Source: Candidatus Thorarchaeota archaeon | GTDB taxonomy: Archaea; Asgardarchaeota; Thorarchaeia; Thorarchaeales; Thorarchaeaceae | NCBI GenBank assembly: GCA_048882485.1 | Contig: JBHLRP010000049.1 | Location: 1 to 24,501 of the forward strand | Direction of reading: 5' to 3' | Length of the DNA: 24,501 bases | Shown: positions 6,893 through 13,575 of the stretch, one piece after another | Layout: each line of letters begins with the position of its first letter | Position numbering within the stretch: position 1 is the stretch's first letter | Notes under the pieces: generated by a model | Seen by the model: only the letters and a program-made list of their open reading frames with translations | The model's database searches: none | Told to the model about the DNA's origin: nothing | Position numbers and translations under genes: made by a program

Positions 6893-9580
6893 TTGGATAG
6901 TCACGCATGGAGACGCGAAATCGATAAGGTCGCTGAAATTAAAGGAATGTTGATTCAGCTCAACAAATCCCTTGAAGACCAGACTGACAGAACCGTGCGC
7001 CATTTATATGACACACTGGCGAAGTTCGCAAAGTTCGAGAGTGATGCAGGTTCAGCAGGTTTCATGAAAAAGAGAAAGTTAGTATCACAGATGGAAACGA
7101 CCAAAAATGCTCTCGAAGAGGACTTCATGAGAGCAGTCAGGGATTTCTCAGATTTACTCCGCAAGGAGCATCGAGAAACCGCAGCGGTTCTTCCAAAGCT
7201 TCAAGCACAGAAACCCAACGAGGCGAAGGCAATCAGCGTGTTGACTTTTCCATCAACTGGAACAGGGGATGCCAAAGACCTAGAAACTCTCCTGACATTT
7301 GCTAAGAATTTCTCAAAGCTCACAACAGGTGTCCATCATGACCTTGCTAGGGAAGTCAAAGAATTTCTTGACGAGAGCAAACGAATCGTTGAAACCTATG
7401 AGAGGCATATTACCATAGATCGAGGCGAAGTTGCTTCCACTTTGTCATATGAAGATGTAGCCCATCTGCCAGTAGGGGACATCATCGGGCTATCAGACAA
7501 ACTTAAAGCTGAACGGACATATCTCGATGGGCGAAAAGACGAAGTAAGTAAGATGATTGGAACCGCATTGATAACAGAAGTAGAGTCATTGCAGGCGTCC
7601 GTTGAAACAGCCTCCAGATTGGGTCTAGAACTGCCAATGGACTTTGGCCAGCAACTCAGAATTATTGCAAGGGATTCATCGAAGACAACTAATCTGACTT
7701 CACTCATTGCTTTAGAGAATCAGCTTCACTCTGCAAAGGTAAAGATGTCAAATCTTCTCAGGGACAGGATTATCAATATGAAGCACGAAGTTACTTCCAA
7801 TATAGTCGAAGGCGGCATTCCTGTCACTGCAGCAATCATCCCTGAAGCACCTATCGTGGGAGTGGAATCAGAGGATGTTGCCAGTCAATTATCAGGCTAT
7901 CAAAAGATGGTTGAATGGGAATCTCAAGTGAAGATATCCCTGAAAGACCATGTAGAAGAGGTTTTGGAGGAAATTGAAAAAGCCACTGATGCCCCAGATG
8001 ATACCGGTATCAAAGATGCCGTTGAGGTCAGAAAGTGGATTGCTGATGCCAAAAAGAGCTTGAAGAAGCAAGAGATAGACGCCATGGTTGCAACCTACGT
8101 GAAAGCAAATGGTATGCGTGAAGAATACCGAAAGAACCTGACAGATACCATTCGAAGCTACATAACTAGATTCAATGAACTTGCCACTTCAGCAGATCGA
8201 GTTTTGGATTACGCCCAGCTTAGCAAAAAAGCGCCGAAAGTCGAAGACCTTGAGGGAGGCATAGTCTATCTGCTCCAATCATTAGCAAGTCTTCGCGTAG
8301 CTGTTGAAGATGGAGTTGCTACATTCCGAGATGCTTGCAAGCAAGAGATCGAAGTCATTGTTGAGGACCTTCAGACGATCAAGCCTGCATATGCAGAGAT
8401 CTTTATGCCAATCATTACCGAGCTTGACGAAGGATCCATGAGAATAGAGAAACTGAACGACTTCGGAGAAATCAGGTCTGAGATGAGGACAATCAAGGAC
8501 ACAATTCTTGTCAAGGCGCAAGAGTCATTGGAAAATCTTCGTTACAGGCTTGGGGTCAAGATTCGACTTGCTGCTGCAAAGCTTATGGGAGCTGGTGTTG
8601 AGATTCCCAAGGAGGCCCAAGAAGCTATTGGTGAACTCAATAGTATAGGTGTGGCCGCTGACACAGTATTCAGTCTACCTGCGATTGCTCGCAAAATGGT
8701 TGAGCTATATGAGCACAAGATAAGCGCCGAAGTTATTGAGTCACTGAAAGAAGAGGTAGCCAAACTCCAGAAATCATTCGATCAGGCACACGCGATTGGA
8801 GTTCCAGTAGACAATGAGTTGAAACTGCTGAAGAAGTTGCGGGATACTCCTCCAGAGGAACTCGAATCCGCTGCAGACTCATTTGACCAGCTCATGGGTC
8901 TAACCACATCACCAGATGTGCACAAGAAGATCAAGACTCGTGCAGAAGAAGCGTACCGCCAGATTCAAGGCGCCGTATCAATCTTTGAGGAACAAGGCAT
9001 GTCTGACTTTGTTGGTCGTCTAAAGGGACTGCTGGAACAGGTTCCAGATCAACTCGCCAAGGACTCAAAGCACATCTTCGAAGTGCTTGATGTGTGTTTG
9101 ACATTAGCAAACATCCAAGATGAAATGTTGCAGGTCATAAAGGGAATCGCGACCAAGGATGGAGAAGCACATCAAGAAGAGATTAAGAAGCAGTCGGAGT
9201 ATTACTCAACTATCGAAGCAGTCTACAATAAGCATCCCAAGGACTTCAGTAAGCTCATATTCCCACTCCAGAAGCTCAAGAAGCTTGAGACTGACCTAGC
9301 TGAGGCCAAAGCACTTGAGGATGCTATTGAGAGCTTTAACGAACTCAAGGGACTTCGATTGGAATGGGTCGAGAAAGCGGCAAAGATGGATGACTGGCAC
9401 AAGTCCATGAAGGTCTTTATGACAGGTTTCAGTCCATCGGGCACATCCGACCAACGTGAAACATTCCTTACTGATGCAATCAAGAAGGTCAAGGAAACAT
9501 ACAGCAGAGAGGACATCAGTTCCTATCTGACTTGGGCGATTCGGGAGATTGCCGATAGAATGGTAGAGAAGAGAGGTTAG
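6893..9580 (+). CDS. Large all-alpha protein built of ~65-aa helical repeats (rod-like); first gene of tubulin-like operon
   Basis: 895-aa ORF; TTG start after GGAGGT SD; E/K/L/A-rich amphipathic helices punctuated by G-hydrophobic turns at aa ~244, 308, 372, 568, 636, 702; no Walker motif, no TM segment. Confidence 0.85.
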   Translation: MDSHAWRREIDKVAEIKGMLIQLNKSLEDQTDRTVRHLYDTLAKFAKFESDAGSAGFMKKRKLVSQMETTKNALEEDFMRAVRDFSDLLRKEHRETAAVLPKLQAQKPNEAKAISVLTFPSTGTGDAKDLETLLTFAKNFSKLTTGVHHDLAREVKEFLDESKRIVETYERHITIDRGEVASTLSYEDVAHLPVGDIIGLSDKLKAERTYLDGRKDEVSKMIGTALITEVESLQASVETASRLGLELPMDFGQQLRIIARDSSKTTNLTSLIALENQLHSAKVKMSNLLRDRIINMKHEVTSNIVEGGIPVTAAIIPEAPIVGVESEDVASQLSGYQKMVEWESQVKISLKDHVEEVLEEIEKATDAPDDTGIKDAVEVRKWIADAKKSLKKQEIDAMVATYVKANGMREEYRKNLTDTIRSYITRFNELATSADRVLDYAQLSKKAPKVEDLEGGIVYLLQSLASLRVAVEDGVATFRDACKQEIEVIVEDLQTIKPAYAEIFMPIITELDEGSMRIEKLNDFGEIRSEMRTIKDTILVKAQESLENLRYRLGVKIRLAAAKLMGAGVEIPKEAQEAIGELNSIGVAADTVFSLPAIARKMVELYEHKISAEVIESLKEEVAKLQKSFDQAHAIGVPVDNELKLLKKLRDTPPEELESAADSFDQLMGLTTSPDVHKKIKTRAEEAYRQIQGAVSIFEEQGMSDFVGRLKGLLEQVPDQLAKDSKHIFEVLDVCLTLANIQDEMLQVIKGIATKDGEAHQEEIKKQSEYYSTIEAVYNKHPKDFSKLIFPLQKLKKLETDLAEAKALEDAIESFNELKGLRLEWVEKAAKMDDWHKSMKVFMTGFSPSGTSDQRETFLTDAIKKVKETYSREDISSYLTWAIREIADRMVEKRG

Positions 9581-9599: not shown

Positions 9600-10985
9600 A
9601 TGCTACGAGGAACATCGAGTGATGATGATCTGACAAAGGCCGCGGAGGTCTTTGCAATTGGGATTGGTGAGTGTGGGAGCAATATTGTAGGCTCCTATCT
9701 GAAAGCCAGTGAGGATAGGAAACTGCCTTCCAGAGTCAGAGGCTATTTGCTCATGAACACTGATAGAGCAGACCTTACCAAGGTGAGACAGAAGTATGGT
9801 ATCCCCAAGGAGCATACAATGCTCTATGGTGCATCAGAAATAGGCGTTGGTGGAAGATTCATGGACGGATATAATGCCGTCCTCGAGTCGAAGGACATCA
9901 TCTTCGAACAGCTCAAAGACCTAGGATTCGAAGGAGTTTCGGGATTCTGCATCTTTACAAGCCTTGGTGGTGGTACAGGTTGCGGCGGAACTCCCGCCAT
10001 AATCGAACTGCTAAAGCAGAGATTCCAAGAAGAAGAAGGGCGGCGAATCTTCGTTTACGTTGTAGGCATTTTGCCATTCGAAGGACAGTCGAGTGAGGCT
10101 CTGAACTCGATCTGGGCTGTATCCCGTCTTCTCAGGGCACAGCTCCAAGAACGCGGAGCAGACCTAACAATTCTCCTAAGCAACAGAACTATGCTAAAGC
10201 GAATCCTCCAATCAAGAGGAGCTGACAGTGTCGACTATCTTCAACGTGAGCTAGAGATTGATATTGCCAATGTCAACCAGATTGAAAGCATGGTACCATC
10301 CACTCTGGATGAGGGCGGCGAACTTGAGGCGCGAACTGAACAGGCATTTGTTGAGTTGGTGAACCCACTAGCATTAGATGTTGTTGAGGCAATGCTCTCG
10401 CCAGGAGTATATGAACCTCATAAGGATGTGTTCCCGACAACAGACCTTGCGGACTATGCAAGAAAGCTTGACCCTGTCGTTGTTCCAGCACTCTACACAG
10501 ATGTTGGATTGATACCGGATGCAGGCAGCATGCCAAAGCAACTCAAGACAATGATGGATTTTGCAGTGAAGGAATGCTCCTATGCTGATGTAGGTGCAGA
10601 GCCAAATGCAGAGAGTGTATACTATGTTTTCTCGGGCCCAAGGCACATCTCCAAAGCTGAATATGGAATGCACCTTAAGGAAGCACTCAATGGATTCATT
10701 GCACCTGGCGCTGCCATCACTCCATGCTATGTTCAATATAACATCAAAGATCCTACTACTAACCTTCTTGTTCTTCTTGGTCTGCCAAAGATTCCAGAGC
10801 TTGTACAAATCATCAACGAGGCAACACAACTCGTTAATCTTCACAGCGGTTCTTCACCACTCAAGCAGGGGTGGTTCATGCGAGCCAAAGGAACAAGTAG
10901 AAAGGAGCTTGTCGATGCCATTGCTGACTTCCGTGAGCTGTTCTCCTACTACATGACACCTGGAGATGCAGCTGAACCGATGTAG
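9600..10985 (+). CDS. Tubulin/FtsZ superfamily GTPase, divergent tubulin-like type
   Basis: T1 IGIGECGSNI, NTD, T3 GVGGRFMDG, signature SLGGGTGCGG (9960-9989), ILPF, T7-like TTDLADY, and C-terminal helices resembling tubulin H11/H12. Confidence 0.93.
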   Translation: MLRGTSSDDDLTKAAEVFAIGIGECGSNIVGSYLKASEDRKLPSRVRGYLLMNTDRADLTKVRQKYGIPKEHTMLYGASEIGVGGRFMDGYNAVLESKDIIFEQLKDLGFEGVSGFCIFTSLGGGTGCGGTPAIIELLKQRFQEEEGRRIFVYVVGILPFEGQSSEALNSIWAVSRLLRAQLQERGADLTILLSNRTMLKRILQSRGADSVDYLQRELEIDIANVNQIESMVPSTLDEGGELEARTEQAFVELVNPLALDVVEAMLSPGVYEPHKDVFPTTDLADYARKLDPVVVPALYTDVGLIPDAGSMPKQLKTMMDFAVKECSYADVGAEPNAESVYYVFSGPRHISKAEYGMHLKEALNGFIAPGAAITPCYVQYNIKDPTTNLLVLLGLPKIPELVQIINEATQLVNLHSGSSPLKQGWFMRAKGTSRKELVDAIADFRELFSYYMTPGDAAEPM

Positions 10986-11004: not shown

Positions 11005-12093
11005 TTGACTGAAGGAACCAACATTGCAGAGGACCTTCTTGACAGAGTCCTCTTGATAGTGACTTTGAATTCAACTCTCCTTCATTTTCTTCTAAGCACC
11101 CAAGTAGACGGCACAGTTGATCCAGACAGAGTAGATTCATTGATTCAAGGACTCCTGAGAACTCGTCGATGGATGGAGGAAGCAACTGAACTGAAGAACA
11201 TAACTCCATCAACACAGAACATCATTAGTCTAATCGTAAAGAGACTCTCTCAAATTGAGAGCCTATTGCCAAAGCTTTCAGCTAGAGCAAAAGAAGCTGA
11301 GGCAAAGGGAGCTCCAGCTGCAGAAATAATCTCCCTATTGGATGATGGCGCTAAAGTAACGACGACAACAGCTGCAAAGACCTCATCAACAGCAACCGCA
11401 ACAAAGACAACGGCAGCACAGGAATCCGGCGTGATTCCTCTCATAGGGGAAGAGGAGGAACAGCCCCCAGAGCCTTATCGAAAGGTGGAAGTTGAAAATG
11501 ACGAATGGGGTCTCATAGGGCAGATGCAGAGGATGATTACACAATACAGCAAGAGATGCCATGTCCTTCTGCCGACATTCTGGGTTGATACTCTTCGGGA
11601 ACTCCACAAGTATCGGTCTGACTCGCCATTCTATGGAGATGTCATTGAAATCCCAGGTCGAGTTCTTGTTAAGATTGTGAAGGGGCTTCTCACGGAAGCT
11701 CCGGGAGCAAGACTTCTTCAAGATTTATCCAAAAAGCGCCCCCAAGAGAATTATCTGAATCCTTCTGAGATGGAGCGGATTGAACGCGCTGTGGCCAAGT
11801 ACTTTTCCGGCGTAGTGGATGTTCTTACTGAGAGCGAATTCAATGTGGATGAGAAGATTGGAGAGGCGCAAGCAAGTTTTGATTCATTTGGCTGGGGAGG
11901 CCCAGAGCTAGAGAAACGAATCATCAAGAGGATAAATCAGCAGGTCCAGGAAGCAATTCAGAATGCAGAATCTGCTAGTGACCCTCCAAGACAGGTAATC
12001 TATTCTGAGATTGCCAAACTCCTGACGAAACTTCAGCATGCAATCCTTGCAGAGCCTAGATTGAGAGAAATTCTAGCTCAAATGAAACCTTGA
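11005..12093 (+). CDS. Hypothetical helical two-domain protein with Thr/Ala-rich linker; third gene of tubulin-like operon
   Basis: 362-aa ORF starting 19 nt after the tubulin-like stop; helical aa 1-110, linker TTTTAAKTSSTATATKTTAA..EEEEQPPEP, helical C-domain. Confidence 0.8.
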   Translation: MTEGTNIAEDLLDRVLLIVTLNSTLLHFLLSTQVDGTVDPDRVDSLIQGLLRTRRWMEEATELKNITPSTQNIISLIVKRLSQIESLLPKLSARAKEAEAKGAPAAEIISLLDDGAKVTTTTAAKTSSTATATKTTAAQESGVIPLIGEEEEQPPEPYRKVEVENDEWGLIGQMQRMITQYSKRCHVLLPTFWVDTLRELHKYRSDSPFYGDVIEIPGRVLVKIVKGLLTEAPGARLLQDLSKKRPQENYLNPSEMERIERAVAKYFSGVVDVLTESEFNVDEKIGEAQASFDSFGWGGPELEKRIIKRINQQVQEAIQNAESASDPPRQVIYSEIAKLLTKLQHAILAEPRLREILAQMKP

Positions 12094-12168: not shown

Positions 12169-13575
12169 ATGTCAGGTCTCAAGACAATGCTTAATCCAAA
12201 AGTTACAGCTGTGGTTGGCGTTTCAACATCCAATCCATTTTCGCCGGGAAATGTTATCTTTAGGAAGCTCGCTTTCGAGAACGACCTCCCTACGTATCCG
12301 ATAAATCCCAAGGGGGGGTTTGTAGAGGGAAGACAGGTTTACAAGAGCATTAACGAAGCACCAGATGACATTGAGCTAGTCGTGATATCAGTCCCGGCGA
12401 GATACGTGCCTAGTGTTCTACAACAGTGTGCTGACAAGGGAATCAAGTCTGTGATAGTGGTTTCAGGAGGATTCAGCGAAGTTGGAGAGTCCGGAGCGTC
12501 TCTTCAAGACGAGATTGTGGAAATTGCAAACAGCAATGGCATCTCAATGGTTGGTCCTAACTGCATCGGTGTCTTCGTGCCGGACCAGCTAGACACATTC
12601 TTTCTACCATCTGAACGTGTTGCGCGTCCCAGAAGGGGATGCGTTGCGATAATAAGTCAAAGTGGAGGCTGGCTTGTAGAGAGACTTGAGGAATTCGCGG
12701 CTCGAGATGTAGGAATTGCGGCGGCCATTTCGATAGGCAATCAAGCTCAAACAAATGTTACTGACTTTGTTAGACACTTTGGGGAAGATCCGAAAACTCA
12801 CGTTATCCTAGCCTATATCGAAGGATTTGGCAAGGATGAAGGTAGGGCATTTGTCGAAACCTGCTCGAAGATTGCTCCAAAGAAGCCTGTAATTGCTTTG
12901 AAAGGGGGTGAGTCCGAAGCAGGCCATCGAGCCACTCAGAGTCATACGTCCTCACTTGCAGGAGATAGTGCAATTGCAGAAGCGGCTTTTGAGCAATATG
13001 GCGTGATTCATGCAATTGATGAAGACGAGGTAATGGCATATTCAAAGGTGTTCTCGACTAGGCCAAAACCAATGCCAGGGAGAGGCATTGGAACAATGAC
13101 CGTGAGCGGAGGTCACGGAGTAATAGCTAGTGACGAGGCTGCTCATTACGGTTTGGAATTTCCAGCATTTACCAAGGAACAACAACAGAAAATGAGAAGT
13201 GTTATGACACCTGCATATCAGGGGATTGCCTCATTTAGAAATCCTATCGACCTTACTGGTAGTGCTGCAGATGTTGATTATGAACGCGTCTTGGATGTAA
13301 TGCTTACCTTCGACTCTATTGATGCCGCACTGCTGCTGCTGCTTCCTTATGCGCCAGGAATATCTCTCCAGATAGGTGCAAGAGTCGCGAATGTTGCTAA
13401 GAAACATGCGAAGACTGTTGTCTCATATGTGCCAAACTTGGATAAGTATGAGGTCATTATTCGGGGCTTCGAACTGAATGGAATTCCTGTAGCGGATACA
13501 ATCGAGGAAGCGGTACAAATGCTAAATGGAATTCGGAAACGCTCAAAATATCTGAAAAGGATTGGAGCGCTCTAA
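12169..13575 (+). CDS. acdA: ADP-forming acetate/acyl-CoA synthetase alpha subunit
   Basis: CoA-binding domain (AVVGVS, YPINPK, SGGFSEVG, MVGPNCIG), ISQSGG, YIEG, LKGG, phospho-His motif SHTSSLAG, SGGHG and NPIDLTG. Confidence 0.88.
   Translation: MSGLKTMLNPKVTAVVGVSTSNPFSPGNVIFRKLAFENDLPTYPINPKGGFVEGRQVYKSINEAPDDIELVVISVPARYVPSVLQQCADKGIKSVIVVSGGFSEVGESGASLQDEIVEIANSNGISMVGPNCIGVFVPDQLDTFFLPSERVARPRRGCVAIISQSGGWLVERLEEFAARDVGIAAAISIGNQAQTNVTDFVRHFGEDPKTHVILAYIEGFGKDEGRAFVETCSKIAPKKPVIALKGGESEAGHRATQSHTSSLAGDSAIAEAAFEQYGVIHAIDEDEVMAYSKVFSTRPKPMPGRGIGTMTVSGGHGVIASDEAAHYGLEFPAFTKEQQQKMRSVMTPAYQGIASFRNPIDLTGSAADVDYERVLDVMLTFDSIDAALLLLLPYAPGISLQIGARVANVAKKHAKTVVSYVPNLDKYEVIIRGFELNGIPVADTIEEAVQMLNGIRKRSKYLKRIGAL

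Follow-up and report, generated by a model that had tools for sequence, protein, structure and literature searches.

The stretch of DNA analysed here (the window, 24,501 nucleotides of contig JBHLRP010000049.1 from a Candidatus Thorarchaeota archaeon) carries at 9600..10985, on the plus strand, an open reading frame (ORF) with an ATG start that encodes a 461-residue GTPase of the tubulin/FtsZ superfamily (P0001). The ORF starts 19 bp past the stop codon of the upstream gene, and a gap of the same size follows it, so that it is flanked by ORFs of 895 and 362 amino acids, here called the upstream and downstream partners. Membership of the superfamily was established by the N-terminal match to PF00091 (Tubulin/FtsZ GTPase domain; E 2e-20, 74 bits against a cut-off of 33), by the T1 and T4 loops and by the two-domain fold. 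As described below, the protein belongs to the Asg.Tub family, and the three genes form a cassette that recurs widely among Asgard archaea.

Asg.Tub was named by Santana-Molina, Saz-Navarro and Devos in 2023 (PMC9871819) as a group of Asgard paralogues. Its tree position was unstable between CetZ and tubulin, sometimes falling basal to tubulins, and its authors judged it to be nearer to CetZ. The C-terminal hidden Markov model of the group gave no match, and its neighbouring genes, of unknown function and with coiled coils, were described as unrelated contexts (PMC9871819). The Asg.Tub-C alignment in the supplement of that paper holds four sequences, among them two from Thorarchaeales and one from Heimdall LC-3. 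The C-terminal 235 residues of the window protein were near-identical to KXH77455.1 and its C-terminal region likewise to OLS30664.1, both being Thorarchaeales sequences of this alignment, while the Heimdall LC-3 sequence OLS26264.1 is the same as our homologue P0113 (51% identity to the window protein). This near-identity identifies the window gene, at the level of sequence, as an ortholog of Asg.Tub. Because the published C-terminal alignment already holds a near-identical Thorarchaeota sequence, the lineage is not a discovery. A literature search returned no experimental work on Asg.Tub, and the name was met in no other paper among those searched.

The nearest homologues were found in Thorarchaeota metagenome-assembled genomes (MAGs; 83-96% identity), and full-length homologues with 50-63% identity in MAGs labelled Hermod-, Borr-, Sif-, Heimdall-, Hod- and Baldrarchaeota. 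When the family profile was run against 1.84 billion representatives of 50% identity clusters, two full-length representatives were retrieved (728 and 491 bits), followed by one 457-residue relative at 155 bits; the rest scored below 80 bits and covered the GTPase domain only. One record, JBHLLF010000027.1 (L008), is 100% identical to window positions 9600-10985 and is titled 'Candidatus Hermodarchaeota archaeon isolate DZ1M.409'. Its tubulin-like gene and neighbouring genes share 93-98% identity with Thorarchaeota MAGs but only ~62% with other MAGs that carry the Hermodarchaeota label, which makes this label look inconsistent.

The motifs listed in the first-pass annotation were all present in the translation, and nearly all of them proved invariant, or conserved to 90% or more, when 42 homologues (49-93% identity) drawn from several Asgard classes were aligned. 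The T1 nucleotide-binding loop GIGECGSN (9660..9683, aa 21-28; this and all following motifs are on the plus strand) has invariant G21, G23, E24, G26 and N28, with C25 conserved in at least 90%. Within the NTD motif (aa 53-55), the GVGG motif (aa 82-85) and the SGFCIFTSLGGGTGCGGTP stretch (aa 114-132), residues N53, T54, G82, G84, G85, G115 and F116 were invariant or at least 90% conserved, and a PFEG motif was read at aa 159-162. The T4 signature GGGTGCGG (9966..9989, aa 123-130) has invariant G123-G125, G127, G129 and G130, with T126 and C128 at 90% or more; C128 takes the usual Ser/Thr position, a variant that is also met in a few unrelated superfamily members. The T7 loop PTTDLAD (10434..10454, aa 279-285), placed by the AlphaFold2 model at the start of helix 283-287, retains both acidic residues and has a Thr in place of the usual Asn, P279, D282 and D285 being invariant and T280 and T281 at least 90% conserved. 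The C-terminal stretch with W, G and Y (nt 10788-10952, aa 397-451) includes invariant W425, F426, K430 and G431. The 'GECG' in T1 and the 'GGTP' that follows the signature had been read as tubulin-like; both are there, but neither is specific to tubulins, because E/Q-C-G in T1 and 'GGTP' are also found in canonical CetZ.

In the alignment, the nucleotide-binding set T1, T3 and T4 is complete and strongly conserved. The Cys in the signature and the T7 loop without Asn, both pointed out earlier, proved to be family-wide changes among the 42 homologues. Such conserved departures would fit a GTPase or pseudo-GTPase that does not polymerise but, as a monomer or dimer, is the regulatory subunit in a complex made by the two helical partners. 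We regard this as very improbable, given that the Gly and Asn/Asp residues that contact the nucleotide and both acidic residues of T7 are invariant, and that the predicted fold matches filament-forming relatives with a Z of ~35. Moreover, identity within Thorarchaeota is 83-96% for Asg.Tub against ~65% for the partner proteins, which indicates strong purifying selection on Asg.Tub.

The three-gene cassette and its distribution

The layout of the window recurred in 66 loci from species-level genomes, with a gene of 830-1393 amino acids, the tubulin-like gene and a gene of 336-365 amino acids in this order. Gaps within the cassette ranged from -35 to +52 bp and were mostly 0-27 bp, the one between the upstream partner and the tubulin-like gene being mostly 3-19 bp. 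An all-against-all comparison was made between the window ORFs and the ORFs of 82 loci, 58 from Thorarchaeota and 24 from other lineages. The upstream partner was found beside the tubulin-like gene in 24/24 of the non-Thorarchaeota loci and 51/58 of the Thorarchaeota loci, and the downstream partner in 23/24 and 57/58, respectively. The three cassette genes (24/24, 24/24 and 23/24) were the only window genes generally common to the non-Thorarchaeota loci; the remaining ones were conserved in Thorarchaeota only, save for an acetyl-CoA synthetase-like gene. Adjacent locus tags of the cassette genes were also seen in public MAGs. The operon partners that had been proposed for the GTPase are thus real and conserved beside its gene.

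A complete 4.9-Mb Asgard genome (G067) contains two copies, at L101:6920-11680 on the minus strand and at L102:3849-9868 on the plus strand. One copy is a full cassette, and the other consists of a diverged upstream partner paired with a tubulin-like gene, with a convergent gene replacing the downstream partner. Because the duplicated cassette keeps the pair of upstream and tubulin-like genes, this arrangement suggests that the large upstream protein is the core partner. At least seven further genomes of that family also gave two full-length tubulin-like matches each.

In a sample of 400 Asgard species genomes, the tubulin-like gene was present in 126 and the downstream partner in 123, in the same lineages. 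Per family, the counts for the GTPase and the downstream partner were 75 and 73 of 85, 21 and 20 of 22, and 15 and 16 of 19, with 5/5 and 4/4 in two smaller families; both genes were absent from the remaining families, including the largest (0/135). Asg.Tub is carried by nearly all Thorarchaeota and by nearly all members of several Heimdall, Hod, Hermod, Borr, Sif and Baldr lineages. Genes bearing Tubulin_C (PF03953) were found in 8 of the 400 genomes, in four families, none of which has Asg.Tub, a non-overlap that is an observation rather than a test because the tubulin-bearing genomes are so few; the genome of the window itself gave 0 matches to PF03953. This tally fits the published figure of true tubulins in ~1% of Asgard genomes (PMC13394414).

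The family described here is the same as in the 2023 study, as are its unstable position between CetZ and tubulin and its neighbours without known function. In that study, the group comprised four sequences in unrelated contexts (PMC9871819), whereas we observed it in 126/400 genomes, in a fixed cassette and with homologous partners. The Asgard-wide distribution, the conserved three-gene cassette and the co-distributed downstream partner are new here, the operon being the main addition.

The upstream partner (895 aa, 6893..9580, plus strand) is an all-helical, acidic, soluble protein, rich in E, L, K and A, for which no transmembrane segment was predicted and no match was obtained in Pfam, NCBIfam or among PDB sequences. 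Its best match in a PDB profile search, a designed ice-binding helix at E 0.003, was not considered credible. Its homologues in front of the tubulin-like gene are 874-1393 amino acids long. In BLASTP, the protein matched its Heimdall and Hod counterparts at E 7e-22 and 4e-17; both ends are conserved, with domains at aa 42-304 and 650-885, while the middle varies. Internal repeats gave weak signals (E ~1e-3, probabilities up to 22%).

The downstream partner (362 aa, 11005..12093, plus strand) has a three-part predicted fold that corresponds to no known family. Its AlphaFold2 model (pLDDT, the predicted local distance difference test, 82) shows a three-helix bundle at aa 4-100, a disordered linker at aa 107-151 and an all-helical domain at aa 160-362 (pLDDT ~95). 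Homologues across classes are 19-29% identical, with some positions invariant. Pfam and NCBIfam gave no match to this protein, the best E-value in a PDB profile search was 0.11, and a Foldseek comparison of the model with the PDB returned nothing at E 0.001 or better. A wide VIA search matched aa 1-111 to generic three-helix bundles only (Z up to 10.6) and barely covered the C-terminal domain. All three cassette proteins look soluble. A complex prediction for GTPase residues 15-455 with the downstream partner scored 0.00 in two runs, to which we attach no weight either way.

Several features of the surroundings were noted as well. The acetyl-CoA synthetase-like gene that follows the cassette in the window (12169-13575, plus strand) is of the ADP-forming kind, with CoA_binding and Succ_CoA_lig domains, and is also present beside the cassette in four Sif/Borr loci. 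In a Heimdall locus (L004:102-1037) and a Hod locus (L006:393-944), small GTPase genes of the Arf/Ras family lie ~7 kb upstream of the cassette; in the window, no small GTPase gene was found next to the cassette.

Phylogenetic position and the C-terminal helices

Trees were built with FastTree (126 rows) and as an IQ-TREE LG+C20 PMSF quick tree (50 rows). They did not include artubulin, TubZ/PhuZ, BtubA/B or alpha/beta-tubulin, and the tubulin set comprised ten Asgard sequences plus one gamma- and one delta-tubulin. In both trees the Asg.Tub family formed a clade of its own (support 99), which was joined by four long-branched relatives, P0125, P0136, P0152 and P0235 (support 96-98). In the LG+C20 tree, this assemblage was sister to a Methanosarcinales CetZ-like clade (support 95). 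Canonical CetZ (support 99, anchored by CetZ_C-bearing proteins), FtsZ (support 97) and tubulin (support 100) formed separate clades, the FtsZ clade containing both FtsZ of the window genome and the tubulin clade containing the eukaryotic gamma- and delta-tubulins.

These trees agree with the domain matches of the window protein. An identity as FtsZ was rejected on the basis of the FtsZ equivalog TIGR00065 (34 bits, far short of the cut-off of 295, with a match confined to the N-terminal 128 residues), the missing match to FtsZ_C and the position outside the FtsZ clade; the window genome has two ordinary FtsZ genes, FtsZ1 and FtsZ2, on other contigs. An identity as canonical CetZ was rejected on the basis of CetZ_C (PF21011), which was not matched in the Pfam scan (E 0.01), whereas four true CetZ from the same search matched it at E 4e-9 to 4e-49, and of the position outside the canonical CetZ clade. 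The same scan gave no match to Tubulin_C (PF03953), which, together with the position outside the tubulin clade, speaks against a true tubulin. The earlier proposal that the protein is neither FtsZ nor canonical CetZ nor true tubulin was thus borne out by its own clade in both trees, and nesting inside canonical CetZ or FtsZ was not seen. Asg.Tub is a separate deep branch near CetZ-like groups. When the family was constrained to group with other clades, the approximately unbiased (AU) test rejected neither the tubulin clade (delta log-likelihood, lnL, of 2.1, p 0.41) nor the canonical CetZ clade (delta lnL 17.1, p 0.14).

The N-terminal GTPase domain is nearest to CetZ by sequence. A search of PDB sequences with the family profile, which matched this domain only, placed CetZ first (48, 35 and 33 bits), followed by Asgard, Odin and bacterial tubulins (~26 bits), eukaryotic tubulins (~24 bits) and FtsZ (23 bits). 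We also aligned the family with hhalign to group alignments built from sequences gathered in this analysis. Over the whole length, the Methanosarcinales CetZ-like clade scored 214 (326 columns), canonical CetZ 192, FtsZ 136 and tubulins 103, and the middle domain (aa 203-392) matched the Methanosarcinales clade (P 3e-4), with no match to tubulin.

These affinities are consistent with Asg.Tub being a divergent CetZ subfamily, in line with Santana-Molina et al. (PMC9871819), and so are the CetZ-like 'GGTP' flank of T4, the short connection between H1 and S2 and the AU test, which does not reject a clade of the family and CetZ. Under this explanation, the C-terminal helices described below would have been added within the lineage; their likeness to tubulin H12 would be convergent, owed to the packing of amphipathic helices on one and the same face, and would be silent on tubulin origins. 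We consider this explanation possible, though on balance doubtful. True CetZ match CetZ_C strongly while Asg.Tub does not, the family lies outside the canonical CetZ clade, the constraint costs 17 lnL with CetZ against 2 with tubulin, and the C-terminal profile matches tubulin only, at the homologous terminal position.

CetZ (Haloferax volcanii CetZ1 and CetZ2, PDB 4b46 and 4b45, and Methanosaeta 3zid) gives the best sequence match for the GTPase domain of Asg.Tub and a structural Z of 34-34.8, and the two have similar T1 and T4 flanks and occur as archaeal paralogues alongside FtsZ1 and FtsZ2. Asg.Tub differs from CetZ in its 40-residue variable insert (aa 201-245), in its gene neighbours and in the C-terminal helices, CetZ having no equivalent of H11'-H12.

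The Methanosarcinales CetZ-like clade (T4 GGGTGNGS) is both the nearest clade in the LG+C20 tree and the best whole-length profile match, its 326 aligned columns including the C-terminal domain, but its C-terminal helices do not match those of Asg.Tub. It is probably the 'Halo.Tub' of the 2023 paper. On a metagenome contig of this clade (L103:2792-11218), an AAA ATPase gene, another gene of tubulin-like type (464 aa) and four genes without Pfam match share one strand, and homologues of the two Asgard partners were not found there. Neither partner was found beside the distant relative P0125 (457 aa). For the long-branched P0235 (510 aa) and its cluster members P0442 and P0443, a Pfam-less gene of 1085 amino acids ends 4 bp upstream in two contigs, and in two more contigs shortened upstream ORFs of 478 and 368 amino acids show the same 4-bp spacing. 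Because large or shortened ORFs lie 4 bp upstream in the P0235 cluster, pairing with a large partner may extend beyond Asg.Tub proper, the homology of these partners being putative.

The AlphaFold2 model of the window protein (42-sequence alignment) had a mean pLDDT of 84 and a predicted template modelling score (pTM) of 0.86. It contains the short H1-S2 connection and, at ~aa 201-245, the insert, which is of low confidence and poorly conserved. At the C-terminus, three helices are predicted at aa 399-414, 420-430 and 434-451 (10794..10952, plus strand; block pLDDT 88-94), corresponding to H11, H11' and H12, and are followed by a disordered tail of 10 residues. In Foldseek and VIA-align comparisons, the top scores were tied between OdinTubulin (Z 35.0, 368 residues aligned) and CetZ2 (Z 34.8, 329 aligned), and Z-scores were 33-35 for OdinTubulin, CetZ, BtubB and beta-tubulin alike, with 357-370 aligned residues for tubulins against 325-329 for CetZ. 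The chains of Odin, BtubB, beta-tubulin and AtubB align with the model from residue ~14 to 454-460, reaching their own residues 423-441, whereas the alignment of three CetZ structures stops at model residue 413, 417 or 423. From these end points, which are what we report of the overlays and which refer to a predicted model, CetZ covers H11 only and the tubulins cover all three helices. In CetZ, H11 is followed by a disordered tail. The presence of H11/H12-like helices, as first suggested by eye, is therefore supported by the predicted model, which overlays tubulins up to the C-terminal end.

We compared a profile of aa 393-455 with the same four groups. Only tubulin gave a match, at positions 383-424 of 428 (H11'-H12), with a score of 27.5 (P 8e-4, 39 columns, hhalign probability 24%); the CetZ, FtsZ and Methanosarcinales sets gave P 0.24 or worse. 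Across 300 column shuffles the mean score was 13.0 (standard deviation 2.5, maximum 23.3), so that 0/300 reached 27.5, and the reversed profile scored 12.2. The C-terminal similarity to tubulin H11'-H12 is thus above chance but weak. Within the match, the residues identical to the top Asgard tubulin were G, K, L, D, A, A and Y. The proposed alignment with beta-tubulin held in that the stretch is present and its profile matches tubulin H11'-H12, but the W...G register requires a one-residue indel. The majority fraction was 0.74 for H11', similar to the 0.76 of the GTPase domain, and 0.62 and 0.23 for H12 and the tail, respectively. While the published C-terminus of Asg.Tub was unmatched (PMC9871819), we obtained predicted H11-H11'-H12 helices together with a tubulin profile similarity.

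The C-terminal results raise the question of whether Asg.Tub survives as an intermediate from the line to true tubulins, or as the sister of that line, with an ancestral H11-H12 outer surface on which both operon partners would dock as microtubule-associated proteins (MAPs) do on microtubules. In favour of this, only tubulins cover the model to its C-terminal end, only they show the C-terminal profile similarity, H11' is conserved like the GTPase domain, joining the family to the tubulin clade costs just 2.1 lnL, and published trees sometimes set Asg.Tub basal to tubulins (PMC9871819). We nevertheless judge it unlikely, since the free maximum-likelihood tree does not join the family to tubulin, tubulin is the lowest of the four groups in the whole-length profile comparison, Tubulin_C was not detected, aa 203-392 align with the Methanosarcinales clade and not with tubulin, and a link between the partners and the H11/H12 face is putative only. 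The 'intermediate lineage' of the first-pass annotation was accordingly not upheld, with the Methanosarcinales clade and CetZ outranking tubulin in the profiles and the AU test rejecting neither placement; an intermediate position relative to tubulin is possible but unproven.

Compared with true tubulins (eukaryotic alpha, beta and gamma, OdinTubulin 7evb, AtubA/B 9f6t and BtubA/B 2btq), Asg.Tub is alike in the whole-length overlay of the predicted model including its C-terminal helices, in the 'GF' before S4 and in its H11'-H12 profile, and its co-encoded helical partners recall BtubC alongside BtubA/B and OdinTubulin with its coiled-coil neighbours. Besides the domain, tree and whole-length profile results given above, it differs in its short H1-S2 connection, its FtsZ-like NTD motif, its D..D T7 loop and its far wider occurrence, in other Asgard families (126/400 genomes against 8/400).

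A candidate filament system of Asgard archaea

Altogether, we think it probable that the window gene, as an ortholog of Asg.Tub, encodes an Asgard-specific GTPase of the tubulin/FtsZ superfamily that forms a GTP-dependent filament system with dedicated partners. In this system, Asg.Tub would bind GTP and assemble head-to-tail into protofilaments, and the T7 loop of each subunit would complete the GTPase site of the one that follows, an arrangement known from FtsZ, CetZ and tubulin. These filaments would work with the large, rod-like upstream protein as core partner, and the smaller two-domain downstream protein would also act with them, as scaffold, bundler, anchor or regulator. FtsZ1 and FtsZ2 are encoded in the genome as well, so that primary division is probably not the task of the system; a function like that of CetZ, in shaping the cell, forming protrusions or organising its interior, would be more likely.

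Several points weigh against this interpretation. Polymerisation, GTPase activity and partner binding are inferred for every member of Asg.Tub, and the adjacency of the genes speaks for functional linkage, not for physical contact. Atypical residues in T7 (Thr for Asn) and in the signature (Cys128) imply that GTP kinetics may be unusual. The packing of the C-terminal helices comes from a predicted model, in which AlphaFold may lean on knowledge of tubulin, and, with the hhalign probability at 24%, convergence of amphipathic helices could account for the C-terminal match.

A more far-reaching proposal can be attached to the filament system. Asg.Tub and its two partners would be an unrecognised filament system of about one third of Asgard lineages, namely the ones for which true tubulin was not found. 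The H11'-H12 helices of Asg.Tub and of tubulin would share an origin, the tubulin-type outer surface would be older than true tubulins, as would its service in docking accessory proteins, and canonical CetZ would have lost both. We put this forward as a speculation that is unlikely to hold.

True tubulins occur in ~1-2% of Asgard genomes, which raises the question of what, besides FtsZ and actin, serves most Asgard archaea, and the literature so far has treated Asg.Tub only as a small 'CetZ-related' outgroup. The main value for follow-up lies in the widespread three-gene module and the predicted H11'-H12 surface. If Asg.Tub is an ordinary CetZ-like protein, it is still part of a widespread Asgard cytoskeletal module of three clonable genes. 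Should it polymerise, with the partners bound by its tubulin-like C-terminal helices, it would offer a tractable prokaryotic model, which could show how a tubulin-type filament gained a surface for accessory proteins and would bear on the origin of microtubules.

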